From Candidatus Saccharimonadota bacterium (GTDB taxonomy: Bacteria; Patescibacteriota; Gracilibacteria; BD1-5; UBA2023), in NCBI GenBank assembly GCA_042852035.1, contig BAAFHK010000001.1, positions 660,001 to 692,000 of the forward strand: a DNA stretch of 32,000 nucleotides. The letters are read 5' to 3'. The notes under the pieces are model-generated. The model worked only from the letters and a program-made list of their open reading frames with translations, ran no database searches and was not told the DNA's origin. The translations under genes and the position numbers were made by a program. Below, one piece after another: positions 1-32,000 of the stretch (the first letter of the stretch is position 1; the number at the start of each line of letters is the position of its first letter).

Positions 1-1
1 T

Positions 2-271
2 ATTTTTAACTTTACAAAGTATGGGATGTGGGTTAAGACACAGATTCTTGAGCCACTCGAAGAGATTCATGACCTATTAGAAAAAAATTCTAATACTCTA
101 GAGAGTATAGCAAAAGAATTGGATATTCAGATAAAGAACTCAATAGAGTCATCCCATAAGAAGCCCCTTGAACTTCAGAAAGAAAGAATCAAAATTCAAC
201 AAGAAAACATCAAAAGAATACTCACGATAATTGACGGTTACATCGTTAAGCTCAACTGAAAAAGGGATTAA
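2..271 (+). CDS. hypothetical coiled-coil protein, C-terminal fragment (5' end outside window)
   Basis: The frame is open from the window edge. Track ORF 26..259 ends at TGA 257-259; read as Gly it continues to TAA 269-271. The sequence is Glu/Lys/Ile/Leu-rich and heptad-like, with no recognisable catalytic motif. Confidence 0.45.
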
Positions 272-274
272 TTG

Positions 275-303
275 TTGGTTTTTTTACATGACTCTGGTAT
301 GCT
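275..303 (+). promoter_or_regulatory. possible sigma70-like promoter of the helicase cassette
   Basis: TTGGTT (275-280), a 17 nt spacer, then an extended -10 TGgTATGCT (295-303), about 20 nt upstream of ATG 324. The match is weak and the background is AT-rich. Confidence 0.25.
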
Positions 304-323
304 AATAAAGCACTCTACTTACC

Positions 324-3071
324 ATGAAATTTCAAAAGACATTTTACCCATACCAGAATGAGATTCTTTCTGTATTTGAAGAAGAAAGAAAGCGTTGAGA
401 TAAAAAAATTCATATTGTTGCTCCTCCGTGATCTGGAAAAACTATTCTTGGTGCTGAGATACTTTGTCGTATTGCGGAACCAGCCCTCATACTTGTTCCG
501 AATCTCACGCTTCTTTGACAGTGGCAGGATAAAATTGAATCACTTTTTCTTGAAGAAGGAGAAAATGCTGAAGAACTGATTTCGACAAATGCTGGTACTG
601 TAAAAAGAATAAATATCCTCACGTATCAATCACTCACAGGAACGAATGATGAAGAAGATGACGAGATAAAAAATGAGATTTATAATCTTTGGTATGAAAG
701 CGAGAAGAACGATTTTCCAGAAAAAGAAGTTTTTATCCAGTTTCTTAAAGAACTCAAAGAATCAAACCCAGATGAATATCAAGAAGGTTATGTAAAACAA
801 AGAAAAAAAATAAAGAACCGCGGTGATTCAATCAATACCAGAAAAATGATGCGAGAAAGGATTTTTGACTATATTAAGCAACTCAAAGAATATGGAGTAA
901 AAGCTCTTATCGTAGATGAGGCACACCATCTGACATCTTGGTGGTCGCATGTGCTCTACGAAATATGGAATGAATTAGATAAGCCTTATATAGTTTGACT
1001 TACGGCCACTCCACCATTCGACAATGTTGATTATTTCGAACTCGATGAAAGTTATACGAAGCTCCTTGGGAAGGTGGACTATATTGTACCAACTCCAGCA
1101 ATTGTCAGAAGCGGTAGACTTGCCCCCTATTCTGATTTACTGTATATTGTAGAACCAGATAGTACCCTCCAAGAAATTCTTAGAAAAAGAGAAGATTCTC
1201 TCGGAGTTTTTATCGAGAATCATAAAACTGAGATAAGCCAATCCCTACATGATATTCTCATAAAAGATTACGAAAACCTGAAGATAAAATCCGGAAATCT
1301 CTGCGATAAATGGATGCGATTTATCTATACCTACAAATCAGAAAGTATTGATATGTGACCGTATATCCATTGAGGAATAGACGGAAACATAAGCCTCGAA
1401 GATATAGCAAAAAGTATTGGAAAATGGGCAAATGATACCTTTAAAAAAACGAAAGAAACCTCAATATTTAATGAGGTAAAATCATTATTTTTTGACCTCG
1501 GATACATATGGAGGTGAGCAAATCTTTATCGATTTGAGACCCCCCTTGAGAAGTGACTCATCTATGCAAAATCAAAAATAGATGGTGTGAAATCTATCCT
1601 AAAAAAGGAAGAGGAGAATCTCTCAAAAGACCTCAAGTGTGCTATTATTACAGATTTTCTTGATGCTGAATCAGATTGGATAAATTGTCATAGCATCTTT
1701 GATGAACTTACAAAAGACTTTTCACACCTTTGCCCTTATATTGTATCAGGAAAAGGAATCTGGAAATACGAGAATGGAGAAAAAACTCAATGCCCCAACG
1801 AAACCATCCTCTCAGTGACTGCTAAGCTCATGAGATGAGATACAAGGCTGGTAATTGGAACAAGAGGGATCCTCGGTGAATGATGGGATTGCCCAAAGCT
1901 GAACACTCTTATAGATCTTACCTGAGTAAGTGCCTATATGAGCGTCAACCAAGTTCATGGACGAGCCATACGACTTGATCCAGAAAATGCAGAAAAAGTA
2001 GCTAATATTTATGATATCGTCTGTATTGGAAAATGATACCAATGACTGCGTGACTTCGAAAGGATTATAAAAAAACATGCGCAGTTTTATGGAGTTGATG
2101 ACTCCTGACTTGTTATCAAATGAATTGACCACATTTATCCACAGCTTGAAAAAAATATAAAAAACTTTAGCGCGATAAATTCATACACTGAGAAAAAATC
2201 GTCACTTCGAGGAATGATGAGAGAACTCTGGAGTATAGGAACAGAGTTTAAGAACGAGGAAATTTATTCCCTATCTCTCGAAATCAATAAGCCCTTTGAA
2301 ACTTACCCCATAAGTAATGATCTCGGGATGATTCTTCTTTTACAGCTTACTCCTGAAGATGTCTCAAAAGTAAACATTCTTGAGCTCTGAAAGACTCGCT
2401 ATCATACTCTTATAAGAAATCAAATTCGTAGGATAGTTGACGCGAGCATTTTGGTAATGAAGTCAGAGGAGATTATACCTCTCGATTTTACTTATAAAAT
2501 GAATCATCAAGACAGTGGAAGCATAACTATCTTAAGCGAATACAAAGACACCCTTATTTCAAAGTATTTCCTTCAAACTATAGCTGAAATCTTTGAACCC
2601 ATCACCAACCAAAAGTATAAATACCATTTCCAAAATAATATTGATGATATAATATCAAGACTCAATCTCTCTACTCCAAAAGTAGGAATACCCACATCTA
2701 TAGTAGCTACAGGAACTCTACTGTGACTCTATGGGAATATCTTTCCAACCTTCATCATGTGAGAATTTATGGTTTTTCTTTCATTCTTCGTATGATGAGT
2801 AGCTCCATTTTATGGAGCCTATAAATATTTTGATAAAAGGATACAATCTTATAAAAAAATCAAAAGTTCCTCTCTCGATTTTCCACTTCCAAGTATTCTT
2901 TCGAGTAATGATGAAAAAAGGAGGTTATTTCTTTGAAAAACAGAACCAAAATCATGGAGACTCAGGTTTTCAAAAAAAATCCCACCAGAGGGAGATATTG
3001 TACCGATTGAGAAAACAGATATCTGAAAAATACCACTCCTTTCTGCAAAAATTGAAAAATTATGGATATAA
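324..3071 (+). CDS. SF2 DEAH-box helicase (ResIII/XPB-like core) with C-terminal hydrophobic hairpin, 915 aa under code 25
   Basis: Frame 0 has no TAA/TAG from 324 to 3068 (checked codon by codon). It fuses track ORFs 1074..1358, 1587..1838 and 2451..2726. Motifs: YPYQ, Walker A APPGSGKT (420-443, Gly = TGA 429-431), DEAH (915-926), motif III GLTATP (996-1013, Gly = TGA 996-998) and motif VI QVHGRAIR (1950-1973). The C-terminus contains GLYGNIFPTFIMGEFMVFLSFFVGGVAPFYGAY. Confidence 0.85.
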
Positions 3072-4174
3072 ACTCTCTTATTTCATCTAGTATACGCAAA
3101 AATGGAAACCTTTATGAGATAAAGTTCCCAAATTTTTTCGGATTTGTGGAATGAGTACTCTATATGCACGACTCACTTACTATTGATTATTGCAGCGGGA
3201 TATTTGGAAAAAAGCTTGATCTTCAAGAATGGAAAAAACCTGTTGATGCTGTATTTCTCATGAGCCAAGTGTTTTGACTCATTCTCATAAGAATTATACA
3301 TGCGAAGAATCCACTAGAAGATACTATCATTGCGGCAAAAGCAGCAAAAATTGTAACATTTCAGATTCGTGAAGAGATCTATTTTTGAATACTTTACTAT
3401 ACCGAAAGATGAGAATTAAAACTTTTAACTGACTTCCATGATTCGCAAATTTTTCGTTCGAGTTTTGAAAATGGAATCTGGAGTATCTCGAATATACTTA
3501 CCGGAACAAATCTTCAATGTTTTTCATTTCCCTGCGAGATTGCTGAAGATGAAGAAATGAGAAAAGGTTCAATAAAAGAATGCTCATTTTACCTCCTTGA
3601 AGATTCTCTTTTTCCTCAAAAACACGAAAAACAATTCATCGAGTCATTTCTGGAATCAATTATCTCTTATAATGAAACAAGTCCACATATAGAACTCGAG
3701 AAGGATGGAGAAAATCTCACAAAGATAACAATCTATAAAAGGATTACCTCTTATGAAAATGATTCTTTGCTTGAAAGCAAGAAACTTATAGGAATTATAG
3801 GAAATCATCTCATAATAACTGAAGATCCTGACATTCTTCCGGACTTTCTTTCTCTTGATTCAGTTGAAAAATTATGAATTGAATCCGTTGAATGATTTTC
3901 CCTCTCAGAGGAAATTGGACTATTTAATCCAAATTGGCATATTTTACGAGTTATGCTTCTGGAACTCTGATATCTTGTTTATTCGATAGAAAAGCATATA
4001 ATGCTTACAAGAAATTCACTCAAGCAAATAGGAAAAATTGATAGCCCCTATCTTGAAAATCAAGAATATAGAAGCAAAATAACACTTGAATGACTCGAGA
4101 GAATAAAAACTCAATATCAGATAACTCTCGAAACTCTTCTCAAAGGTATAAAAAAATCACAAAATCTCATCTAA
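3062..4174 (+). CDS. hypothetical protein, 370 aa, middle gene of the helicase/AAA+ cassette
   Basis: ATG 3062 overlaps the helicase stop (TAA 3069-3071) by 10 nt. Frame 2 is open to TAA 4172-4174 with 8 in-frame TGA (checked codon by codon) and contains track ORF 3557..3877. I recognised no motif. Confidence 0.7.
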
Positions 4175-4180
4175 TCTACT

Positions 4181-5485
4181 ATGTCACAAAATCCTACCGG
4201 CTTCGATGCCTTCTTTACTGCTGTTACTAGTTCTCCAGAATTTCGAAATGCCGTGAACAAAGACTGGAAGGGTGATTCTCTGGAGCTCCTCGAAACTTCA
4301 CTCAAGCAGATGGAAGAATGAGTCACAAAAGCTAGCGAACTCATGAATGAGTATGATAAAAAATTTACTCCTTCTCCAAATAACTGACCCAGAAGTGGAT
4401 CTTGAGATTCTACAAACCCACCAAAAACTGGAAATCCTCAAGATGAAAAAACAGAATCCCCTATCGAGATACAGCACTTCGTCAAAAAAGAAGGGAAACC
4501 TTGGGGTTTTGAAGCAGTCGCGGGAATGGATGAGCTCAAGAAAGAACTCCAAGAGAGCTTCATAAGACCTTTAAGATTTAAGTTTCTTATAGAAAAGCTT
4601 CGAAATGAGCAAAAAAATACCAATGAAACTGATCAGGATAATTCAACAGAGAAACCTGAGGATATTTCTCCTAATGAGAAGTCAAAAAACCAACTTCTTG
4701 AGAGACTTTACCGTGAGTATGAAAAGTATAAAATATCTATTCCCACTGGAATGCTCTTTTACTGACCTCCTGGAACTTGAAAAACATTTATTACAAAAAA
4801 GCTTGCCGAAGAGCTTGGGTGTGGATTTATTTCTAAAAATCTTTGAGAGTTTGGATCATCCTATCTCCATCAGACTACAAAGAATATAAAAGATTTCTTT
4901 GATGCGGCGAAAAAAGCTGCAGAAAGCGAACCAATCATCCTTTTTTTGGATGAAGTTGACTCGCTTGTTTCTGCACGAACCGATAGAGTAGATGCCAATA
5001 AAGCGGAAGAAATTTCTCAATTCCTTCAAGAATTTAATGCCCTTGAATCAGCGCCGAACCTTATTGTAATTGCAGCGACAAATCGCCCCGATCATCTTGA
5101 TCCAGCGATTCTGAGATCTGGACGTCTAGACAAGAAAGTCTATCTTTGACCTCCGGATGAAAAGGCACGAAAAGAGCTCTTTAAAATGTATATAGAAAAG
5201 GTTGGAAGACCAAGTAAGAAACTTGACTATGATGAACTTGCAAAACTCACTGATGGTTATGTCTCGGCTGATATAGAGGCTATATGCGATGAGGTTGCTC
5301 GAGATGCTTCCCGCGATCTCTTGGAGCTTGTGGATGAGGCTGAAAATGGAAAACTGAGCGAGAAAGACCTCTCCGGACATGAGATAACCATGGAAGACAT
5401 GAGAAAAACAATTTCAGAAACTCCTTCTTCACTCAAGATGGTAGACATGAGTGTATATGAAAGTTGGCTTGAGAAGATCAAATAA
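4181..5485 (+). CDS. AAA+ ATPase, classic clade (CDC48/FtsH/Vps4-like single AAA module), 434 aa
   Basis: It starts 7 nt after the previous stop and fuses track ORFs 4526..4765, 4946..5149 and 5186..5485. Motifs: Walker A GPPGTGKT (4763-4786, both Gly at 4763-4765 and 4778-4780 are TGA), Walker B ILFLDEVD (4937-4960) and a second region of homology ATNRPDHLDPAILRSGRLD (about 5075-5131). Confidence 0.9.
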
Positions 5486-5575
5486 CTACCAGGATTTTAT
5501 CTTGAAGAAGTACTCTTGAAAATATTAAGTGATATTCAATCAGACCCTCGAAATGAAGTGAATACTTATTAAAAT

Positions 5576-6412
5576 TTAAGCCACTCCATAGAATCTCAGC
5601 GAATTTTCATATATTCTATCTTCTATATCAAGGATAGATACTCCTCGAAGTTCTGCAATCTTCTCGAGCGTATAGCGAGTAAATGCTGGCTCACAAACTT
5701 GTCCTCTGACTGGTTGAGGAGCAAGAAATGGAGCATCCGTCTCTATGAGCAAACGATTGATTGGTATATTTTTTGCTGCTTCTTGGACTTTAAGAGCGTT
5801 TTTATAGGTGACGATTCCAGAAAATGAAAAGTATATTTCATTCGAAAAGTCCATAAGTTCTCTTGCAAAGCTCCAGTCTTCTGAAAAACAATGCATAACA
5901 GCTCGCCCTACTCATTCTTCTTTCATAAATTTAAGAGTGGCGTCACGTGCATCACGAGTATGGATAACAAGTGGTAAATCATATTTACATGCAAGTTCAT
6001 GCTGAATTCTCCACCAATTTTTTTGGGTTTCAATCTGCGAAATTGCCCTCTCAGTGAGTCTATCAGGGTCGATCGGATACTTTCATCACTCTGTGCCATC
6101 AAGATAATGAAAATCAAGTCATGTTTCACCTATTGCCACAATAGAATCTGCATCTGAAATAAGAAGTCTTTCAAGGGCTTCAACCAAAATAAAATCTTCT
6201 ACATCTTGTGCTGTTTCAGGATGAAGTCAGACAGTTGCATAAAACTTCCCTGGGTATTCTTTTGCAAGATTAATAGCCTGATTTGATGTTTCAAGATCGC
6301 ATCATATTTGAACCACTTTTTTTATATTTACCCTCTCCATATTAATAAGTACCTCATCTATACGAGGAAGCAAGCTATCCCAATAACAATGTGCGTGTGT
6401 ATCAAAAATCAT
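5576..6412 (-). CDS. tatD: TatD-family metal-dependent hydrolase/DNase, 278 aa
   Basis: The minus-strand frame has no TAA/TAG from 5579 to 6412 (checked). N-terminus is MIFDTHAHCYWD. Other motifs: IGETGLDFHY (Gly = TGA), LPLVIHTRDA, MHCFSEDW and IETDAPFLAP. It contains track ORF 5576..5896. Confidence 0.9.
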
Positions 6413-6417
6413 AAAGC

Positions 6418-7419
6418 CTATATTCAATGAAGTGTAATAGTGTAAATATCACCCTCAGCATTTACAAACCCGGGCAATCCATTATGAAGAAGAAATCCTT
6501 GTATCTCAATCCCTCTTTTAAGTATATTTATGGTATTTTCTTCTCGATCATAGAGAACTAAAACAGACATATCACCTTCAATATTCTGAATTTGAAGTTT
6601 TTCAATCGCTTTCTTACTAATAAATCATATTCTATATCTTGAGGTATAGTCAATATAATCGGTAAAACGAAGGTTTTTTTTCCATTCACCTCCCCTATTT
6701 TCGTAAAGTCAGTTTACTGTTTGAAGTTTGAGAAAACCATCGATTTCTGCAACTGAGATAATCCTTTCAGGATAAGGAAATTTAGTTGAAAAATTTGGAG
6801 ATTCAAGGGAATAAATATATTGCTGTCATGCGGTATTATTCGGAACAATTACAAATGAACGAGTTAGATCAATGTACGCACCCAAAAGAGACTCTTTACT
6901 CCGATAAACTGGGATAAACTTTCAACTTGAAAAAAAGCCGAGCTCACCTCAATCTCTTTTATCAGAAATAGCAATAGCCCGATTTCCTATTCAGATTCAT
7001 ACAGGAAAATATTCACTTGGAACAATACTCTCAGGATTCTCTTGAGAGTATCAAACTTTTTGCATAAGAAAGACCACAGGGAGTTGAACAATATATTTTC
7101 TCTGCTCTCCATTCTCAAGCTGAACAGTATCATTAATATCTTCTCTTCCATTCGATGATATTCGTAAAGAATAATTTAGTGGTGGGATTGGTGAGAAATA
7201 ACATGATCACGTACAAGTACTTTTATATCGAAAAACTTGATCAAGAAGAGGAAAGTTTTTGTATTTTAACTCACCATCAAGACTTACAGTAAAGCTTTCG
7301 ATCGAGTCGGAAATAAGCACCAATGAAGTAACATTTTTTTTATAATAAAACCAATATAAAAAAATTGGTCAACCAATCAATACCAAAAGAATAATGAGAG
7401 CGATAAAGCGTGAACGCAT
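6418..7419 (-). CDS. hypothetical membrane-anchored protein, 333 aa
   Basis: The frame is open under code 25 (checked) and ends at TAG (6418-6420), 5 nt upstream of the tatD start. The N-terminal anchor is MRSRFIALIILLVLIGGPIFLYWFYY. No catalytic motif was recognised. Confidence 0.7.
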
Positions 7420-7479
7420 AAAATATTGCAATTAGGAACATTATAGAGAAAATGGGGAAAACGCAATTCATAAAAGGAT

Positions 7480-8151
7480 ATGGATATTCACTTTTTTCAT
7501 AAGATCATCTCAAGCACGTCTCGATCAATTCCACTTATAATTGATGAGAATACAGCATTGCTTTGTTTAAGTGATTTTCTAGGTACTGAAATATGATCAT
7601 TTGACGACTGCAAAACTGGAAATTTTTCTAATATTTATCTCTATGAAAAAGAAGAAGAAAAAGTTTATATAACAGTGAATATTATACGTAACTGGATAAG
7701 AGATCTTTCAGAGAAACCTTACGCATGAAAAAATCTTTTCATTCTTCGGTACTTTGATGAGGCAACACATCAGGCTATGAATGCTGCACTTAAGGCACTT
7801 GAGGAGCCTCCGATTCATGCAATAATTCTCTTGGTAGTAAAGAATCCTGAAGGAATTCTTGATACCATACGATCGCGAACGATAAATATGTTTTCCTCTC
7901 AAGGATATACTCCGTTATCAAGAGAGATAGTAACTGATATTGAAGATTTTATAGAATGAAGAAGATTTCCCCTCCTTACAAGAATTCAGTCATGAAAACT
8001 TGATGAATTCACTACTATTTTAGTATTAAAATATATTATCGATAAATGACCAGAATACATGGTATCTCGTTTAGAGTCTTGCATAGACGACCTTCTCGAG
8101 GTACATGAAAGCCCGAGAAATATACTTGACAGAGCAATTATTTACATGTAA
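7480..8151 (+). CDS. holB: DNA polymerase III delta-prime-like clamp-loader subunit, 223 aa
   Basis: Contains FDEATHQAMNAALKALEEPP and ILDTIRSRT (clamp-loader sensor motifs) with no P-loop, as expected for delta-prime. It includes track ORF 7777..7959, is open to TAA 8149-8151, and shows the classic holB-tmk neighbourhood. Confidence 0.75.
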
Positions 8152-8351: not shown

Positions 8352-9122
8352 ATGCCAACACCCAAAAAAATTACGGTTTCCCAGGCAACCCCTCTAGAAC
8401 AAAAAACAAAAAAAGATATCTTTTTTTCTACCGAAGAACGTCCTGGAACTCTTATTATCGTCGAATGATCAGACGGTTCTGGAAAATCAACTCAGCTTCT
8501 CATAGCCAAAAACCTTCTTGAGTCAAATGGCTTCTTTTGCGTTCATAGTGTATGGAACTCATCACTCAAGATTCACGAAATGCAAAAAAAACTGAAGAAA
8601 TCCGATTTGCATATGCCTGCTGCAGTATTTGATATGGTGTATGCGTCAGACTTTATTGAGAGATACCTCACAGAGATGCGATGAGCACTAAGGGCAGGTA
8701 TGGTAGTTCTCTGTGATCGTTATATGTACACTGCTCTTGCTCGATGATATGCAAGATGACTAAAAATGGAACATCTGAAACCATTTTACGATGCCTACTT
8801 CCCTGTTCCAGATATGGCCTTCTACTTTCGAATACCAGTAGAAATAGCAGCACAAAGAGCTATAGGTCGAAACCCTTTGAAGCATTATGAAGCTGGTATG
8901 GATGTTCGTTACAGCGATAACATCATAGAAAGCTTTAAGAAATTCCAGACAAAGGTTATTGAGTGATATGATATTCTTGCTGAACAAAATGGAATGCACA
9001 TCATTGATGGTATAGCTCCTGTATATAAGACAACTCCTCTCTTTATCGAGAAAATTGCTGACTACTTTGAAAAAAAGTACGACGTTCAACTCATGGGAAT
9101 CCAACGTCGTTCAAAAAATTAA
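8352..9122 (+). CDS. tmk: thymidylate (dTMP) kinase family protein, paralog 1, 256 aa
   Basis: P-loop EGSDGSGKSTQ (8463-8495, first Gly = TGA 8466-8468) and a DRY-type motif LCDRYMYTALARGYARG. The frame was checked to TAA 9120-9122 and contains track ORF 8766..8966. Track ORF 8327..8521 is out of frame. Confidence 0.8.
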
Positions 9123-9159
9123 CTTCTTTTCTTGATTTTGTAATATTCACCTTCACTGT

Positions 9160-9933
9160 ATGCGTCCAAATATATCTAATTGTCATGCACTTCCTGGTTC
9201 CCTTATTATTTTCGAGGGACCAGATGGATCTGGAAAATCTACTCAAATTAAACTCCTGAAAAAACTCCTCGAGCGCGAGTGAAAGAAGGTTACCGTTTCA
9301 TCTTGGAAAAATTGCCCTATTCTTGGAGATTTTCTCAAAGAAAATGAGGGTCTAAAAAAATTCGATGAACGAGTTCTTCCTGAAACGAATCTTTTTCTTC
9401 AAGCTGCCGACTTACTCTATAGAATTGAAAGAGAAGTTATTCCAGCAATGAAAAAATGACATATTGTTATCCTTGATCGAGGCCCACAAACCCTCATAGT
9501 TCGATGACTTATGCTTGGTATGAGTAATCATCAACTCAGAGATGGACTTCTTTGGTGGAGAAATACTGTTTATAAAGAACTTCTCGATAAAAGTCTTACC
9601 ATCGAGCTCACCATAAATCTCGATGAATCACTCATACGTCTCAAAAAGCGCGCACTCAAAGAAGATAGAAGCCTTACAAAAGCCGAGAAAAAGGCTGAAT
9701 GAACTCTTCTAGGTCTTGATTTCATTAACTCACTCGTCTACTCTCCTGAAGGAAAAAAGATGACAAGAAATGATAAACGACAGTTCATACGAAAAACTCA
9801 AAATGATATTATAGAAAACTACAAAAAAGTTTTCAAGGAAGAAACTGGAAAATGAGTTCAACTTACCTGAGAGTGAAGCCTCAAAGAGGTTGAATACGCA
9901 CTCAAAAGAAAAGTTATTGATTCAATATTTTAA
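9160..9933 (+). CDS. thymidylate-kinase-like P-loop kinase, divergent paralog 2, 257 aa
   Basis: P-loop FEGPDGSGKSTQ (9211-9246), but ILDRGPQ replaces the DRY motif. The frame was checked to TAA 9931-9933 and contains track ORF 9511..9702. Confidence 0.7.
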
Positions 9934-12969: not shown

Positions 12970-14424
12970 TTACTTATCTGTTACTTTTGTAGTTCGTTTT
13001 GTTGGGCTTTTCTGTGCCTGGGATGGATTTGAATCCGTTGTTGCTGACTTTTTTCGAGTACTAGTAACCTTCTTTTCCGCACCATCGAGAGCCTTTACGG
13101 CTTTTGATTTCTTCTTTTTTGCAAGAGCAGCCTTTGCGAGTTGCCTTCATTTTTCGAGTTCATCTATCTCACCTTCAAGCTCTTCTACTTCATATTCAAG
13201 CTCATCTACTCGTTCTTCATCCTTTCTGAAGAGCAACCAAAGAATCCAAATAATAAGGAGAAGTGTAGCAATTAAAATAAGCGCTCACCAATTTATTCAT
13301 TTATCTATGTAGCTATATCGTATATTAATATCTTGCTCACTTTCAAAAGGCTCTATTGCTCCATCAGTTTTACGATATTCAAGATGAATCTTTGCCTTGA
13401 TAATCTTTGTTGCATCTATAATCTTCAATTTTTCCCATGGGAGAAGATATCCAGCAGTATCTCCACTCTTTCTTGAATAGTATTCACTTGGTGAGAGAAA
13501 CTTAATGACTTTCTTATCATTTTCTAGATCTTCATAGGCAAATCACTTCCATAAAACCGTATAAAGACGATTCGAGCTTGGAAGCACATTACCTGCCTCA
13601 TCATTAATTGGAAGATAATCGACAATCTTCTCTCCCAAAAGAACCCCATCTTCGCTTCGTATGCTCTCCTTTCCGATTCTTTTAAGAAGCAACTCATCGT
13701 CGTAGAGCTCAATTCGACCCACTGGAAGTATATGCGTATTTCCATTATTAGTAACCGGAATATTAAAATTCATTCCGAAATCATTCTGTACGAGTACTGG
13801 TGGAGTAATTCTTGGATCAAGATCTCTTTTGAGTTTAGAAATCCAATCATTCGGTTGAGACTTGGGAGCAGAAGAAAGCTCGATACCAATATCTCAAAAA
13901 ATTGTATCATAAACAATTTTTCCAGGAACATTCACAAGAAGAAGAATTCCCGTTCTTTTTACCATTTTTACAGTATTTCAGCTCGTGTCAGAACCTTCTG
14001 GATTATTAAAGAATATAGCACCATAATGACCTCCAGGAAGAGCATCATTAGGAGCCTTAACGATTACCTGTATTTTCTTTTCTGAATGAGGAGGAACAAC
14101 AAAACTCTCAGGAGAATCATAACTTATCCATGAAGATACACTATCTGGGTCTGGTCATGATTTTTGATTCTCTCGACACTTTGGAGTACCAGCACCATCA
14201 TCAGTTACACAATCTTCTGCTGTAACATATATATTATATGGAACATCAGCATTATTAAAGAATGATACCTCTTTGGTAACGGTTTGTCCCCTCTCTACGG
14301 TAAAATCATGACGAATAGGTGATACTCACATACTAATACGTGAGCCCTCACCAACTGCAAAACTTTGAGTAAGACCTGACAAAGAAATGGCAAGAAAAAT
14401 ACCTATCAAATGAATTTTTCGCAT
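12970..14424 (-). CDS. secreted Ig-like surface protein with C-terminal TM anchor and charged tail, 484 aa (DUF916/DUF3324-like by eye)
   Basis: The frame was checked codon by codon. Signal peptide MRKIHLIGIFLAISLSGLTQSFA. The body is beta-rich, with HSEKKIQVIVKAPNDALPGGHYGAIFF. The TM helix GALILIATLLLIIWILWLLF lies at about 13225-13300 and is followed by an acidic/basic coiled tail. It contains track ORF 13543..13773. Confidence 0.8.
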
Positions 14425-14475
14425 AAGAAAAGAAAAAGGATAGCAAAATCATATAAAATTTGCCTCAAAAATCAA

Positions 14476-14505
14476 GAAAAGTCCTCCGAAGAAGGAGGAC
14501 TTTTC
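14476..14505 (-). terminator. rho-independent (bidirectional) terminator after secreted paralog A
   Basis: The stem pairs GAAAAGTCCTCC with GGAGGACTTTTC around a 6 nt loop. On the minus strand it is followed by TTGATTTTTG. Confidence 0.6.
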
Positions 14506-14522
14506 TTCTATATGATGAACTA

Positions 14523-15188
14523 TTAGAAATTTCCTGTTACGGTAATTACCACCTTATCAGAATAATCGCCTGCTGGTGTTTGTGAATTTGGAAGTACTAC
14601 AATAGAGAAATTAAAGTCATTTACTCCAGTAAGAGGCTGTGGACGAGTAGAAGTATAGAGAGTATGGTTGGTTGTATTATTGTTTACTTCTGTCGAAAGT
14701 GTTGCTGCATGAGAAAATCATGGATACGTCGAATCCGAACTACTAATTACTGATACAAACTTATAACTATCGGCTGCACCATCAACAGCAAGCGAGTTAA
14801 TAACAATAGCACCACTTGAGTTACTGGTCATACCAGCATTTGTAGATCGAGCAGTAACAGAAGCGCCATTAAGAGCATTCGTTCCGATTTCAAGATTTAC
14901 AGTACCAGTGGAAGAGGTTGTACTTGAAAGATTTCCAAGAGAGATAACTCCAGATCCAGAGATGGTCATATTCAGTGAAGGGAGAATTCTTCCTGTGACA
15001 ATAACACCATTAATCGTACCACTGGCACTTGATCCAACAAATGTATCATTCCAGTTAATTGCTGTAGAAAGTCCACCACTTGAGACAACTGTACCGGTAC
15101 CAATTTGGGATGCATAGAGGGCAGGGAGCTGAAGAAAAGAAGCAAGAAGTAAAACTGCCGCAAGGGAACGAAGAGAAAATTGGGACAT
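14523..15188 (-). CDS. small secreted Thr/Ser/Gly/Asn-rich beta protein, paralog A, 221 aa
   Basis: It extends track ORF 14718..15227 through TGA to TAA (14523-14525). The preferred start is MSQFSLRSLAAVLLLASFLQLPALYA (signal peptide). The C-terminal strand is TPAGDYSDKVVITVTGNF. Confidence 0.8.
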
Positions 15189-15252
15189 ATAAGAAAAGTT
15201 ATGGAGTACCCTTTCATCATTCCACAATACCCATTAGAAGTCTAGGAGCTGC

Positions 15253-15290
15253 ACAAAAAAAACCCTATGAATGGATAGAGTTTTTTTATT
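15253..15290 (-). terminator. probable terminator after secreted paralog B
   Basis: On the minus strand: AACTCTAT, loop CCATTC, ATAGGGTT (one G-U pair), then a T6 run. It is flanked by A8 and T7 runs, so it could act in both directions. Confidence 0.45.
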
Positions 15291-15331
15291 AATATATTAT
15301 AATATATTTTCTTTGTATAACCGATTCCCTT

Positions 15332-16009
15332 TTAGAAGTTTCCAGTAACTGTAAGTACTACAATATCTGTATAGTCCCCTGCTGGAGTTTCGATAGAGGG
15401 CTTAGCAGAAACTGAGAATGAAAAATCATCCGTTCATACTGAAAGCACTTGAGGCTTACTAGAGGTATAGAGAGTATGGCTTGTTGTATTATTATCCACT
15501 TCAGTATTAAGAGTGGCAGATTGAGCAAATGCAGCATAGCTTGAGTCATCGGCAGCTACTATTGCTGAACTAAACTTATAACTATCAGCTACTTCATCAG
15601 TGGTAAGATCATTGATGTATGTAGTAGGACTTGAGGTATTTTGAAGTCCTCCGTTTGTTGAGCGCGCAGTTGCAGATGCGCCATTCACAGCGTTGGTTCA
15701 GATTTCTACATTTACAGTTCCTGTAGAGTAGTCTGAATCCACAAGATCTCCGAGATCGATAATTCCACTTCCTGAAACAACCATATTGAGCACAGGTTTT
15801 ACACGTGCTTTAACGTAGAGTCCATTAATACTACCCGATGCAGCATTATTGGTAAAAGTACCATTCCAATCGACTGCTGTAGTAAGTCCACCACTTCAAG
15901 CAACAGTACCTGTACCAACTTGGGCAGCACCAACAGAGACGACTCCTGTAGAAATCATCATACCGGCAGCAACAACTCCAGTAAGAAGTTTTTGGGAGAA
16001 AGTATGCAT
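15332..16009 (-). CDS. small secreted Thr/Ser/Gly/Asn-rich beta protein, paralog B, 225 aa
   Basis: The frame was checked and contains track ORF 15434..15688. Signal peptide MHTFSQKLLTGVVAAGMMISTGVVSVGAA. It is collinear with paralog A, with roughly half of positions identical by eye. It ends with the same TPAGDYTDIVVLTVTGNF. Confidence 0.8.
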
Positions 16010-16542: not shown

Positions 16543-19500
16543 ATGAAACATCAGAATCACTGTCATGAAACGATCAATGATATTTCCGAGAAATGAACAA
16601 AAAGAAATGCTACAAAATGAGGTTCACATTCGTACTTTCAAAGAAATAAAAGAAAAATTCTTGGAATAATCGCTAGTTGAATTATTTCATGATGTTGATG
16701 ATGAAACATCGAGACAACAAATAACGCATGAAGTGAGGTTTCTGATTGAAAAATGCAAAAGATGGCAGTAAGCATACCCATTTCAAGCGTTCCAACTTGG
16801 GCGCCTTTTGAGGTTGACTGAATGATGGGATATGGATATATCTACTTTGAACACCCAATAAGTGGATATGTACAAGGACCGTACATGAATCCATTTCAAT
16901 CTAGTAGTTATAATCCGAAAGATGTTCTCACAAGACTCGGATCAACAGAATGGGTTATAGTTCGTGCTTCATTCACATATGATGTAGACAAGAATAATGA
17001 TGGAAAAACCGATTCAAGTTGGACCCCCATAAATGCAGGTATGTCAATGATAATCCACAGATCTGTATTTGAACGTGGAGAAAAAATCATTTTTAGTCCT
17101 CGATCTGCATTTATCTCTGAATCAATTCTTACAAGATCTGGAAAAATTCTCTCAAAGGAATCATTAGATACCATAGCACGTGAAAGCTCTACAGATGACA
17201 TGAATAATGACGGGATTATTGATTATTCTGATATTACCGGGAAAAAATGGTCAGCCCAATTGAATCCGAGTATTTCACTTCCTGGCTTCGGAAACTATAT
17301 GGAAAGTGTATATGTAAATAACTGAGTTAATCGTGGAAATGCAATCAAAACTCTCATAAAAATGCAAAATCATACAATTCTGAAGATTGTTCCACAATCA
17401 ACGAGTCACGATCCTGCGCTCAAAATAGAAACCTCGAGCACCTCAAGCATTCTCTATACTCTGGATTGAAGTACTCCGATTCCCGGATGACCAACAACAC
17501 TAACGGGGGCAAGCGGCATAACTATACCTCTTCAAGATAGGCACATCTATTTCCGCGAATATATACCCACAGGGACTACGCCTATATTATGAAAAGTAAA
17601 ATCCTTTGATCTTGCAACTGACTGGATGGAACTAACACAGCAATCACAGAAATATAATCCATCTTGAAAAGAAACTTTAGAAGAGACCTCCCATTCCTAT
17701 AATGGGAAAAATTATATCGTACGTGCTATCTCAAATAAGACTTCACCAGGTTATACATATCCGAAATTCCTTGATTGCCAATTAGAAATAAATACTTCAG
17801 AGTGATGTCACTTATGACCATACGTTGCATATAATGAAGCTCACGAAGCAAAGGTTCGTGAACTCATACATTCAGCCATTCAAGAATATATTAATACCCA
17901 ATTAAATCAACCAACTAATCCAAATCCACCAAACAATACTACCGGACCCAATACGAGTCCGAATCACTATCAGAACGAAATAGTTGATTATACAGCAAAG
18001 ACACCTTATCTCGGATGATGGTATCAAGTACAAGTTCAATGGAATCTCACTGGAAAAAATGACTTTCCTGTTACCATAGTCGGAAGCTATGCGACACCTG
18101 ATGGTATTAGGCAAGCAAACATAACAGCCACAGCAAATAGTGAAGCTGAGCGACTTTCATTTTCTCAATCAATGGTGGGAAAACTTAAATCTATCATCGA
18201 TGCCAGTAACGCAAATCTTCCCAAACCAACCTATCCACCAAACACAGTTCTTCCGTCAAATCCAGTAAGCTATAAGGGGTATACATATACCCTTATAACA
18301 ACAATGAATACAACAGGATATAGTGACTATCCAGCGAGTGTAAAAGTAAAATATACTACACCGAATGGAGCAAAGGAAACACCAACTCTTCCTGCTAAAA
18401 ATATCTCAGAGCTTTCTGTAGTCCAGAATGAGCGGATAAATGAGGCTAAATCACAGATTGATATGTCATTATGACTCGATAAATACCCTCCATACTATGT
18501 GGAAACTATCACATCGAATAAACCATTTGGATATGGAAGTTATACAACCACTTTTACCTATTCGTGAACTTTGGGAAAAGATTATCCATGATATATCGAT
18601 GTAAACTATAGAAGATTAAATGGCACAACCGGAAAGTGGACCATGGAAGCCAAAAGTGAAGCTGAAAAAAATCTATTTATCCCACAATGAGAAGCTCAAG
18701 CAAGACTCGAAATAGATAATTACCCCCTTCATCCAGTAAATAATATCGTAGCTTCAGGAAATATTCCTTACGGGAATAAATGAGGAACTTATACTCAATA
18801 TGAAAAATACAATCGAAAGTGAACTGGATATAACTACCCAGTCCTCATCTGGATGGAGTATCGATCCACTAGTACTTCTCAACTCCTTGATTCTAGAAAT
18901 ACCTATGGAGTAGTAGAAGCGCAGGACTCAGAGCAGTTAAAGGTTATAAGATGAGCTCTCGAATCTTGGGTAAAATGACAAATAACCGCACTATGACCAA
19001 CAAATCAAACAACTAAATATGCCAATTCAACCTGATTACGTATATTTGATATTCTTATTCCAAGTGCCTTTGCTGCTAATACTCCTAATAGTATAATAAT
19101 AAAATCCAATCCTACCAAGCTTACACCATTGAGTCCATATAGTGCTGATATATCGTTTTTCCGAACTTACAATATAGGCAATCCAACACAAGAATTCTTC
19201 ATGAAACCTTGATTCTCAGCACCTACTGGAAAAAGTAGGGTAAATTATGTGGGGAGAAGTATCGATGAAGCTAGAATTAAAGCGGCTAGAAATAAAATAC
19301 TTACCGCAATGGATTCAATAATAAAATCATTAAAGACAATAGAATTTAACTCTTTATGATCATGTTCTTGAGCTGGTACAGTTAGCACCACATGAGGATG
19401 TATAAAAAATATCGTTCCTTGAAACAATACATTAATTGAATGACATATAGAAATTTTAAAGATACTAAATGATTCTTTTGAGAATAAAACTTTAGATAAC

Positions 19501-20100
19501 CAAACAGCGATTGAATTTGTTATTGAAATATTTAATTGAAAGTGACTTATTTTTGAGTCACTTAGTGAAAATAAACTTTGAGAATATCATCCTGCATTAA
19601 ATGCATACTTTGCGTATGTGGTTTGATCATGAAGATATGGTAATTTAAAAAGAAATAGAGAGCTACCGATAGTTGACTATAGGAGTTGATCCCAGGTTAT
19701 TAGGTGAATTGTTATTAATTGAGTAATAGTCTCAGGAACAGAACTTTGAAACTTATTAATTTGATACCTATGAGCAAAAGCCTGATTCACATTTGATTAC
19801 ATAAAAACATGTGCAAGAGTATTTAATATGTGGAAATATATTGAGGAAAATAAATGAAGGGCTGATATTTCTGAATGAGAATTATTATGACACGCATGGA
19901 ATCTAGCTTGAATTAATGAAGCATGAGATAGTGTGCTCTACAGGGAGTGATATAATTATGCTATTGCAAATCCAAACAAAACCATATCATCTAACGATAT
20001 ACTAAATATGTTTAAAAGTCAGTATGACGAATACAAAAAAATATCAGATCCAGAATCCTCCCTTATAAATCTCTACAAACAAAGATTTAATTTGAATTAG
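16543..20100 (+). CDS. large repeat-containing surface lipoprotein, 1185 aa under code 25
   Basis: Frame 1 has no TAA/TAG from 16450 to TAG 20098-20100 (every line checked). It fuses track ORFs 16822..17325 and 18172..18474. The lipoprotein signal is KRKILGIIASGIISGC (lipobox 16684-16695, with Gly as TGA, followed by TGA TGA TGA). There are two DxNxDG Ca-binding-like loops at 16981-17013 and 17194-17232, about six divergent ~90 aa modules and a distinct C-terminal domain. The start codon is uncertain (ATG 16543 is the first in frame). Confidence 0.8.
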
Positions 20101-27610: not shown

Positions 27611-27685
27611 TCCCCGATAGCTCAGCGGTAGAGCAACCGGCTGTTAACCGGTAGGTCACTGGTTCGAATCCAGTTCGGGGAGCCA
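27611..27685 (+). tRNA. tRNA-Asn (anticodon GTT), CCA encoded
   Basis: A 75 nt cloverleaf folded by hand. Acceptor stem TCCCCGA/TCGGGGA, D arm GCTC-AGCGGTA-GAGC, anticodon arm ACCGG-CTGTTAA-CCGGT (GTT at 27643-27645), T arm ACTGG-TTCGAAT-CCAGT, discriminator G and CCA. Confidence 0.93.
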
Positions 27686-29915: not shown

Positions 29916-32000
29916 CTATATACCAGATCATCCTGTATAAAGACTTGGATTGAGTGATCTAATAATCATCACTGATCCCGGCAATATCGATACTTGGGTT
30001 CATCCAACTTCACTTGCAAATTGGACTCAGACGGTTCAGGCTCAAGTTACATTGAATGTTCCTTCAAGTTTTCCAAAAGTTGTCGTACTCGCAGCTGGAG
30101 TTACCGTTGAAGTGAGCAATGTACCTGGAATAGTAGTTGCTCATTGGTATCTTGTAGAAGCCGTTTCTTGGAGAGATGAACCAAGAACAAAGTCACTCAG
30201 TCAAGCAGTAGTACCAGTAACGGTTAATCAAACTCAAACACTTGTAGATGCTGACTGATATCTTACATATACTACGATTTCATAAGGTCATGTAGGGAGA
30301 GTTGCTGACATCATTTCAGTAACATTTGAGGCAAAATTACTCGTACTAGACTGTGTAGTAGTAACTCTATAAATAAATGTCCCCGTCTGTGAAGATGATA
30401 GTGTCGACCAATTAGCCACACCATTAGCATCTGAGACAAGTATTTTCCCACTTCATGCATTATTTCGAATTCGCAGTGATCCACTCAAATCAAGAGTATT
30501 AGTTGGATCAACTCAGATACCTACGCTTCCAAGTCTAAATATTGTCTTATTATCTCAGATTGCAATTGTTGGATTTCATGCCTGACCAATTTGGAACTCA
30601 GGAGTACCAGCAAAATTATTAGCACCACCTCGATTTTCGTAACGAATATTTCTTTGATTTGAAAGTCATTTTAGAACAAGATCCACAAGATCAACAGAGC
30701 CTGCTTGTTCAAGCATTAAACCATTCACTCATGCCCTGTTTTGGAGGTAAAGTCGTGCAGTTCCATATGTATCTCCTGTTTCCTCTATAACTAATCCTTG
30801 ATTTCAAGATATACGACTATTTGCTGTTGGAAAAGTAATTGTTCAAGCCCCATTATCCGTAAAGCTTCCTATTCCAACGCTTGAACTTGAGAGCCATCGA
30901 GTAACATAATTTGTTGTTCCTCAAGTGAGAGTTGCAACGACCGCTTGCCAAGACGCTACACCAGTAGCATCAGAAGTAAGAACCCTACCAGAAGCTGGTG
31001 ATCCTCCAGAAATCTTTACCTGCCCATTAACATCGAGTTTCACGCTACTTGATGGCGTTGAAGTTCCGATTCAAACACTTCCATTTGCACCTATTCTCAT
31101 TCTTTCGCTTCCTGCCGTATAGAATCGAGTAATACCATGAGTGTAGTTTGTAGTATTTTTCGTAGTTTGTCAGACAGTAAGAACTCCTCATGTTTGACCA
31201 GAAGTTCCAGCAGCATAATTTATTGCTAGACCCCTATCCCAGTCAAATCCATCAGAAAGAATAATGGAAGATCCTACTGCACCCATAAACCATAGTGATG
31301 ATGCGTTTTGATAGCTTTTAATAGTAAATTGCGATTGTCCTGCGGTATCATTAAGTTTAAAATCTCCGCCATTTATATGAAGCATAGACTGTGGATTGTT
31401 CGTACCAATTCCAACATACCCTCCAGTCGTGACACGAACCTTTTCCGTATTACTTGTACGAATTACGAGTGGTTGAGCATCCGTAGTTCAAAGGAAATTA
31501 GTTACCGGATCCGTTCCTGCATTTCCTATAAGTGACCATCCTGCAATACTTCCTGTCGCCGCTGTTTGCCAACTTGCAATTCATGATGCATCTGACACAA
31601 GGACCTTTCACATTCCTGGATTTCATCATCTAATTCTAATCGTTCCGTTGATATCAAGCTTGGTAGAACTGGTAGGTGAATTTGTAAAAATACCCACATT
31701 ACGATTCGTATAATCAAGATACATAGTGCCGCCTTGCATAGCACCAGTAGATACATTTCAAGAAAAGCGTGGGTCAAAGACTGCATACAAACCATTCATT
31801 ACTAGCGGCCATCTATGATTCGAAAGACCACTCCAGCTCGTTTGCCAGAATAGAAATCTATCACCCCCATCCGTAGCATTATCATCAAGCTTAAATACAT
31901 AATCCGTATTGTCTGCAGCATTCTCCACCGAATACATAGTTGCTGAATCAGTAGCCAGAAGCCATCGGAAGCCACCTGGGTTTGAGCTTCATATACCAGG
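29916..32000 (-). CDS. large tail-fibre-like/adhesin-like repeat protein, C-terminal 694 aa (5' end outside window)
   Basis: The minus frame has no TAA/TAG from 29919 to 32000 (every triplet checked) and ends at TAG (29916-29918). It contains track ORF 31188..31385. The protein is Gly/Thr/Ser/Asn-rich, with three copies of VGIGT..P...LD.NG...I followed by G.G[KR][VI]L.SDA.G[VI]A[SN]W, and a beta-rich C-terminal domain. Confidence 0.8.

Follow-up and report, generated by a model that had tools for sequence, protein, structure and literature searches.

In archaea, XPB (Rad25/XPB-II), a helicase of superfamily 2 (SF2), has a co-encoded partner nuclease, Bax1, of about 360–400 residues. The anti-phage systems Shango, Hachiman and Zorya are also multi-gene sets with an SF2 helicase; Shango adds an ATPase, and in Zorya the helicase comes with membrane coiled-coil proteins. 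Here we analyse a locus of a Candidatus Saccharimonadota bacterium that bears a likeness to each of these, in a 32,000-nt stretch of contig BAAFHK010000001.1 (assembly GCA_042852035.1; the window). Its core consists of three consecutive open reading frames (ORFs), which encode an XPB/ResIII-like SF2 helicase (ORF1), a protein of 370 residues (ORF2) and a AAA+ ATPase (ORF3). An earlier note had read the three genes as one undescribed triad, possibly for defence. The balance of probability tilts slightly towards a different reading, in which two units, each inherited vertically, make up the locus, namely the helicase–ORF2 pair (unit A) and the AAA gene with three further gene families, fam15, fam1 and fam3 (unit B). 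The two units are probably co-transcribed.

The window has a G+C content of 35.7%. Under translation table 11, it contains just eight ORFs of at least 150 residues, about 4 kb in all, and it becomes densely coding once TGA is taken as sense. TGA occurs in frame at invariant Walker-A glycines, specifically residue 36 of the helicase (context APPxSGKT) and residues 195 and 200 of the AAA protein (context xPPGTxKT), and also at other family-invariant glycines. Because in-frame TGA sits on invariant Walker-A glycines, TGA is read as Gly (code 25). A TGA-decoding tRNA-Gly(UCA) was not found in the window.

The helicase and its partner ORF2

The helicase matches the Pfam families ResIII (5.5e-25) and DEAD (3e-11), and in searches against PDB profiles it matches archaeal XPB-II/Rad25 over the RecA1 lobe only (3.7e-13). 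The full SF2 motif set claimed in the earlier note is present: all motifs were located, and all are invariant in a 14-sequence family alignment (A5). Specifically, motif Q is at residues 8–11, I at 33–40, Ia at 57–63, Ib at 99–104, II (DEAHH) at 198–202, III at 226–231, IV at 439–445, V at 512–522 and VI at 542–550. The large inserts reported between motifs Ib and II and between III and IV measure about 95 and about 205 residues, respectively, and both are kept family-wide. The hydrophobic C-terminal hairpin was also recovered, at about residues 793–838 in a Kyte-Doolittle scan. One or two such transmembrane (TM) hairpins are predicted in every Gracilibacteria helicase orthologue, inserted into the C-terminal module in the alignment. 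No TM hairpin was found in the tested archaeal and large-genome homologues (P0099, P0109 and P0123), and three other homologues (P0056, P0061 and P0066) have one predicted TM segment.

The helicase belongs to an uncharacterised family of proteins of about 900–1000 residues, with members in Gracilibacteria, in many further bacteria and in Marine Group II archaea; 777 homologues were found in bacteria and Marine Group II archaea. The homology to this family is full-length, at 24–31% identity, and spans both inserts and the C-terminal module. Family members go by the name "DEAD/DEAH box helicase family protein" and differ from the window helicase in having no ORF2 partner: outside the Gracilibacteria lineage, the helicase is a stand-alone gene amid core or metabolic genes. 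In Marine Group II archaea (L007, L008, L010 and L011, about positions 6340–7988), the helicase homologue is always preceded by a gene for a Zn-ribbon (DZR) protein of 436–547 residues, so that the partner of the helicase is a Zn-ribbon protein there and ORF2 in the window. This upstream protein was considered as an analogue of ORF2 and rejected, since the two do not match. Some bacterial helicases (proteins P0085 and P0119) carry double Zn ribbons as an N-terminal fusion. Fusion and adjacency together form a Rosetta-stone link that, as read from the sequences, suggests a Zn-ribbon cofactor for the wider helicase family.

Compared with archaeal XPB, the window helicase is twice as long and aligns over the RecA1 lobe alone. 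Other than that, it differs by its two large inserts, a family-specific C-terminal module and the predicted TM hairpins. Membership in XPB proper was assessed with the full-length equivalog models (NCBIfam repair_heli_XPB/rad25), which comprise the damage-recognition domain, RED motif and thumb. The helicase scored 47 bits against NF045503 (cut-off 610) and 12.7 bits against TIGR00603 (cut-off 328.7), with only residues 8–113 aligned. ORF2, in turn, is not Bax1: it gave no Bax1/DUF790 signal in Pfam, no significant match in a Foldseek search of the PDB, and no conserved acidic catalytic pattern. With these differences, archaeal XPB–Bax1 is the nearest functional analogy for the pair, and the likeness suggests a two-subunit complex that would open or translocate DNA.

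The earlier note could assign no motif to the 370-residue protein, and every library and structure search used here drew a blank as well. ORF2 has no Pfam, NCBIfam, PADLOC or PHROGs match, the Pfam hits at E ≤ 1 being noise only. Its family is tiny, with 19 clusters at 50% identity in 1.84 billion proteins. An AlphaFold2 model built from a 17-sequence alignment has a predicted local distance difference test score (pLDDT) of 81 and a predicted template-modelling score of 0.81; a model from a 3-sequence alignment (pLDDT 38) was unusable. In the predicted architecture, an all-beta domain at the N-terminus is joined by an alpha/beta linker to a long helical hairpin at the C-terminus (residues 291–366). 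A Foldseek search of the model against the PDB and BFVD returned nothing at E < 0.001. Matches to beta-propeller blades (E ≥ 0.013, template-modelling score about 0.15) were discarded as noise. Only eight columns of the ORF2 alignment are invariant, with no known active-site pattern among them. Neither a conserved catalytic pattern nor a signature of a nuclease, protease, TIR domain, Sir2 domain or pore-like protein was detected. A match of one ORF2 orthologue to CARF_PDDEXK (E 0.003, 14.8 bits) is at chance level, and the (D/E)xK motif is not conserved. A protein encoded at a deep-branching locus (fam10, L006), suspected to be an ORF2 paralogue from its similar N-terminus, was rejected with an hhalign probability of 0.1%. 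ORF2 evolves fast, with 17–60% identity among orthologues compared with 38–64% for the helicase and 54–76% for the AAA protein.

The stop codon of the helicase gene overlaps the start codon of ORF2. The junction decamer ATGGAT(A/C/T)TA(A/G), which takes the helicase end ...KIEKLWI* into MD(I/L)..., is found in 10 of 10 helicase–ORF2 loci. It is kept in the deep-branching loci L006 and L055, where the pair comes after the AAA gene and where the partner proteins match the ORF2 hidden Markov model (HMM) at 7e-19 and 6e-11, respectively. A divergent genome with 26% G+C (L073) encodes a helicase of 36% identity, has the junction variant ATGGAAATAA, and encodes a partner of 363 residues that matches an extended ORF2 profile at 7e-8; an AAA gene was not found nearby. 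Because the overlapping stop and start are strictly conserved, translation of helicase and ORF2 is taken to be coupled. Helicase and ORF2 are an obligate, truly coupled pair. For genome scans, ORF2 profile A2 offered no usable conserved stretch, and none of the 59 pattern matches of profile A1 was confirmed.

The tight packing of the three ORFs is exactly as the earlier note gave it, including the 10-nt overlap and the 6-nt gap between ORF2 and the AAA gene, which is 5–12 nt in other loci. The spacing of the three genes resembles that of a single transcription unit, in line with the proposal of one operon, and tatD is indeed convergent with the AAA gene. The weak promoter proposed at 275–303 did not hold up: TTGGTT-17-TATGCT has 7 of 12 matches, under the scan threshold, and promoter-like sites in positions 1–6500 are not enriched (16, versus 19.8 ± 4.6 in shuffled sequence). 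A terminator downstream of the AAA gene was not supported by the scan. The transcription unit probably starts upstream of the window.

The AAA+ ATPase and its neighbours

The AAA protein matches Pfam AAA (PF00004, 5.9e-36) and AAA_lid_3 (PF17862, 2.3e-8), with a weak Vps4_C match at its C-terminal helix. Its best PDB matches are Cdc48/p97 (3.5e-82), and the top-matching stretch is in the D2 module. It is a single classic-clade AAA+ module, as the earlier note stated, with Walker A (residues 195–202), Walker B (253–260), sensor-1 (298–303), the second region of homology with its Arg fingers (310–317) and the lid all present. The N-terminal region of about 190 residues had been described as low-complexity. 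It does contain two variable low-complexity stretches, but it also contains a conserved N-domain (residues 1–63) and a likewise conserved linker helix (about residues 94–140). The N-domain is lineage-specific, as is the conserved C-terminal tail, and the N-terminal 146 residues have no Pfam match.

The AAA module, Walker A and B, sensor-1, Arg fingers and lid are shared with Cdc48/p97/VAT, FtsH, PAN and Vps4/CdvC. Unlike these, the window protein is single-module, without D1, protease, MIT or a known N-domain. Its pore loop 1 is GEFGSS instead of the usual aromatic-hydrophobic-Gly, and its constant partners, unlike those of the named classic-clade unfoldases, are membrane coiled-coil proteins without assigned function. 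It falls well short of all NCBIfam equivalog cut-offs, among them those for CDC48 (186 versus 803), FtsH (162 versus 600), PAN (157 versus 500) and CdvC (151 versus 650), and belongs to none of the curated subfamilies.

Relatives of the locus were surveyed by protein look-ups and re-annotation with code 25, and GTDB species representatives were scanned with the C-terminus of the AAA protein as anchor. The scan yielded 60 AAA loci, all in Gracilibacteria/Altimarinota metagenome-assembled genomes (MAGs), with 55–85% identity over the 88-residue C-terminal scan segment. In some deep-branching Gracilibacteria, the AAA gene is in tandem duplicate (L051 and L054), and one MAG, HOU_bin.0025, has it at three loci (L065, L067 and L071).

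The dominant gene order is fam15 - fam1 - AAA - fam3. The fam1 protein has about 410 residues, about four predicted TM segments and a C-terminal coiled coil, and no Pfam match; at loci without the helicase, the fam1–AAA gap is 1–21 nt. The fam3 protein has about 220 residues, with two TM segments and a coiled coil, and is encoded in one to three tandem copies (multi-copy at L004, L031, L034, L037 and L040). The fam15 protein is a soluble coiled coil of about 370 residues. Among the best 120 of its 593 homologues, it is 68–93% identical lineage-wide, and none has a Pfam domain; a PDB profile search was empty. The idea that fam15 might be TelA (PF05816; toxic anion resistance) was dropped, as TelA is not among the Pfam hits of a fam15 representative at E ≤ 1 and has no PDB support.

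The coiled-coil gene at the left edge of the window (2–271), which the earlier note thought might belong to the cassette, does belong to this neighbourhood. It is the 3' end of fam1, and no other gene neighbours the AAA gene as constantly as fam1 does. The product of the fragment matches the fam1 HMM and is 52% identical (tblastn) to the C-terminus of a 419-residue protein of the close relative L001, and fam1 adjoins the AAA gene or the helicase gene in 38 loci. A fam3 gene is not at the window locus and was lost there. At L004 (1538–6814), polyamine genes encoding a glutathionylspermidine synthase-like protein, spermine synthase and AdoMet decarboxylase lie between fam1 and the helicase gene; because this block sits there, the operon is seen to tolerate insertion at the fam1–helicase boundary.

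Genes for LemA (PF04011), DUF3137 (PF11335) and TPM-domain (PF04536) proteins recur beside the module (L014, L017, L022, L030, L031, L040 and others, downstream of fam3; L001, 3931–4827), and a gene for a PilT-like T2SSE ATPase precedes tatD in 11 loci. This company suggests an envelope or membrane-maintenance neighbourhood. Nuclease or other immune-effector genes were not seen among the recurrent neighbours of the AAA module.

Inheritance of the pair and rival explanations

Among the 34 informative scan loci, that is, those with enough flanking sequence, the pair is present in 6, and the AAA gene stands without it, within about 10 kb, in the other 28. On the AAA tree, the pair-bearing loci are dispersed, often beside a sister taxon without the pair. 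In the close relative L001, ORF2 and the AAA gene are present and the helicase is missing; an unrelated gene for a 191-residue protein with two TM segments is there instead. This gene was considered as a remnant of the helicase C-terminus, and the similarity is not significant (E 0.02–0.09). The order also varies, being AAA–helicase–ORF2 in L055, AAA–fam10–helicase–ORF2 in L006 and fam1–helicase–ORF2–AAA elsewhere. The triad that the earlier note treated as one unit thus falls apart, given 28 loci with the AAA gene alone, L001 without the helicase, and L073 with the pair and no AAA gene.

The locus is at one chromosomal position, next to tatD and fam5 (both on the minus strand), holB, two tmk genes, xer, a RecX-like gene and radA. 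Synteny of tatD extends to 19 loci, with fam5 and holB after it, and the tatD-holB-tmk-xer-radA position is fixed in 17–19 loci. The G+C fraction of the locus (0.32–0.39) is like that of the rest of the window, and composition is uniform. The helicase, ORF2 and AAA trees have the same deep split, and helicase and AAA distances are correlated (r = 0.75). No near-identical helicases were seen in distant genomes, and no mobile-element, nuclease or effector genes neighbour the locus. Few phage records (2 of 50,697) and few plasmid records (5 of 72,556, all of them non-mobilizable megaplasmids) contain the helicase, and scans of viral contigs for helicase and ORF2 found nothing. Because the patchy pair keeps a fixed position and its divergence tracks the host, vertical descent with repeated loss is proposed; an ancestral pair, vertically inherited and repeatedly lost, fits the data as the most economical reading. 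The island-like patchiness that the earlier note had in mind holds in part. The pair is patchy, but it is embedded in an operon and is not island-like: position is fixed, composition ordinary and the deep split congruent, unlike a defence island or mobile element. Likewise, the AAA gene is kept throughout the lineage, with no known housekeeping role, and the pair is patchy. At L072 (8238–10296) and L073 (2088–3284 and 6256–6845), the helicase gene is near genes for an AAA_14/DUF4143 ATPase and PIN toxin–antitoxin genes, the sole hint of a variable-region setting for the helicase family.

In the two-unit reading, helicase and soluble ORF2 would form a complex, as coupled translation suggests. 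Unit A would be a membrane-tethered, ATP-driven, XPB-like DNA translocase or unwinder, with ORF2 as a putative non-catalytic adaptor or regulatory subunit made of a beta-domain and a coiled coil. Its substrate would be DNA at the inner membrane face and its role a dispensable one, e.g., repair or the handling of incoming DNA; it would not be an immune effector. Unit B would be a hexameric unfoldase or remodeller of the Cdc48-D2 type, with the coiled coils of fam1, fam3 and fam15 as possible clients or anchors. Several points weigh against this reading. A patchy pair is compatible with an accessory or defence role too. Absence of the pair was scored in the 10 kb or so around the AAA gene, and a helicase may lie elsewhere in those genomes. 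The helicase and AAA trees are poorly resolved in the main clade, so some transfer among Gracilibacteria may have occurred. Moreover, that the pair lies within the AAA operon, in either of two arrangements, argues for a functional link of some kind, which a two-unit view may understate. Units A and B may or may not cooperate: the retention of the pair in the AAA operon points to a link, whereas most species have the AAA gene alone and L073 has the pair alone.

The earlier note had found no named system with this gene composition, and no PADLOC or NCBIfam system model fitted the locus in our searches either. PADLOC-DB 2.0.0 includes models for Shango, Hachiman and Zorya. The models for SngA (TerB), SngB, SngC, HamA (DUF1837), HamB and ZorA–D matched none of the helicase, ORF2 and AAA proteins at E ≤ 1 and none of fam15, fam1 and fam3 at E ≤ 0.1, and TerB, DUF1837 and MotAB-like components were not detected. 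The window genes also differ from these systems in being vertically inherited and non-island. The PADLOC matches that were obtained (PbeA, IetA and TRIP13) reflect generic P-loop or AAA similarity. Specifically, PbeA models cover only residues 6–75 (32.9 bits) and 438–566 (21.9 bits) of the helicase, and no dnd or pbe genes were found in the window; PbeABCD is a Dnd-linked archaeal restriction module (PMC6459918). PADLOC IetA models match the AAA core at 4.5e-41, but the NCBIfam model IteA_antiphage (cut-off 510) gives 128 bits and is outscored by CDC48, at 186 bits over the same region. IetAS joins the IetA/IteA ATPase to a subtilase-like protease, IetS; neither the window nor the 60 related loci have an adjacent gene for such a protease, and the window AAA gene, unlike IetAS, is lineage-conserved in a fixed operon.

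The proposal of the earlier note was that helicase, ORF2 and AAA protein form an undescribed anti-phage or nucleic-acid surveillance system, in which the helicase would sense or translocate foreign DNA at the membrane, ORF2 would be a novel effector, and the AAA protein would regulate or execute the response. The dispensability of the patchy pair and the fast evolution of ORF2 would suit such a system, as would the PIN and AAA_14 genes near the helicase in L072 and L073 and a membrane anchor that would put the helicase at the site of phage-DNA entry. No PADLOC model fits, however, with the PbeA match confined to about 70 residues of a generic N-lobe and the IetA match to a generic AAA core. 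ORF2 has no effector signature or conserved catalytic pattern, the AAA gene is conserved in the lineage without the pair, and the genes occupy a fixed position inside an operon amid housekeeping genes, with a vertical signal. The helicase family, moreover, is nearly absent from phages and mobilizable plasmids and is found elsewhere in core-gene contexts. We consider a defence role quite improbable, and the anti-phage analogy is abandoned, there being no fitting defence model, no mobile or effector neighbours, and a fixed, vertically inherited chromosomal place. Chance adjacency is a very improbable explanation. It would make the pair an ordinary cytoplasmic DNA-repair helicase with its partner, lodged by chance, in a compact genome, between two genes of an operon unrelated to it. 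Genomes of the lineage are tightly packed with short gaps, the helicase family is stand-alone elsewhere, and the surroundings are rich in DNA-metabolism genes, but the pair still adjoins the AAA gene after rearrangement (L055 and L006), and the predicted lineage-specific TM hairpins speak against a purely cytoplasmic role.

The opposite possibility, that fam1, helicase, ORF2, AAA protein and fam3, maybe with fam15, form a single membrane machine, is unlikely, although several observations point towards it. Such a machine could be a ComFA-like motor for import or processing of DNA scavenged from the host, with a reduced version in lineages without the pair. The pair is inside the AAA operon in two arrangements and two deep clades; helicase, fam1 and fam3 are all predicted to be membrane-anchored; the PilT-like ATPase gene is downstream in 11 loci; and the TatD, Tmk and RadA neighbours would suit DNA salvage or processing. 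The likely source, HHAS10, is an episymbiont with type IV pili and ComEC (PMC11393006). On the other hand, most species hold the AAA module without the helicase, and L073 holds the pair without an AAA gene. The PilT-like gene is also found at helicase-less loci (L015 and L038) and is absent from the window, and no competence-protein homology was detected for any member. In a more speculative form, which we hold just as tentatively, the pair with fam1, AAA, fam3 and maybe fam15 would be an undescribed membrane-embedded nucleic-acid machine found only in code-25 Patescibacteria, either a DNA-import or processing motor by which an episymbiont would feed on DNA of its host, or a Zorya-like, envelope-anchored sensor for invading DNA, in which ORF2 would be a new fold coupling an XPB-like translocase to the membrane apparatus.

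Features of the window and meaning for the lineage

Table 1. Features at the left end of the 32,000-nt window, with the observations on which they rest
Feature	Position	Strand	Basis or remark
3' end of fam1 gene	2..271	+	fam1 HMM match; gene continues past left window edge
fam1–helicase spacer, 52 nt	272..323	+	contains the proposed promoter
ORF1, XPB/ResIII-like SF2 helicase, 915 residues, 22 TGA	324..3071	+	Pfam, PDB profile, family alignment
Predicted helicase C-terminal TM hairpin	2700..2837	+	Kyte-Doolittle scan
Overlapping stop/start junction ATGGATATAA, 10 nt	3062..3071	+	helicase end ...KIEKLWI*, ORF2 start MDI...
ORF2, 370 residues, 8 TGA	3062..4174	+	obligate helicase partner
ORF2–AAA spacer, 6 nt	4175..4180	+	direct sequence reading
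ORF3, single-module classic-clade AAA+ ATPase, 434 residues, 7 TGA	4181..5485	+	Pfam AAA, AAA_lid_3
tatD	5576..6412	-	Pfam TatD_DNase 2.4e-69; context, outside the module

Elsewhere in the window, two tandem thymidylate-kinase-like genes (8352–9933) are about 35% identical to each other, and each is more than 90% identical to its L001 orthologue. They are an old, strongly conserved duplication and may differ in nucleotide specificity. A WxL-like cell-surface cluster lies on the minus strand (12970–16009), in which g13 has a WxLIP_PGBD domain (PF06030, 1.6e-6); after it come two paralogues in tandem, each of about 220 residues and with a signal peptide (14523–15188 and 15332–16009). WxL-type clusters are typical of Firmicutes, and this one is therefore unexpected in a Patescibacteria genome. 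Positions 16543–20100 of the plus strand encode a protein of 1185 residues with a Cys-containing N-terminal hydrophobic segment, a lipoprotein candidate, and positions 29916–32000 of the minus strand encode a repeat-rich, surface-like protein of at least 694 residues that continues past the right edge. A tRNA-Asn(GTT) is encoded by a single gene at 27611–27685.

HHAS10 is a JAEDAM01 MAG from activated sludge, an episymbiont of Zoogloea in which UGA is read as Gly and which has type IV pilus and comEC genes; the genes of the present locus are not discussed in the paper that describes it (PMC11393006). The locus genes are undescribed. What is new is an XPB-like helicase with predicted membrane anchors and an obligate partner whose fold has no known match, beside a new classic-AAA module; the parent kinds of both are known. 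Two sets are now told apart, namely a lineage-wide AAA+ membrane module and a putatively membrane-tethered XPB-like helicase with its obligate partner. A false lead for the discovery of defence systems is thereby removed, and exact targets for recoded expression are defined, namely helicase with ORF2, and fam1 with the AAA protein. Since Gracilibacteria and JAEDAM01 have not been cultivated, depend on hosts and have tiny recoded genomes, any conserved gene set is likely to matter for their lifestyle. A role of the pair on DNA at the membrane, whether for uptake, salvage or exclusion, would, if real, have consequences for how these episymbionts acquire or police nucleic acids.

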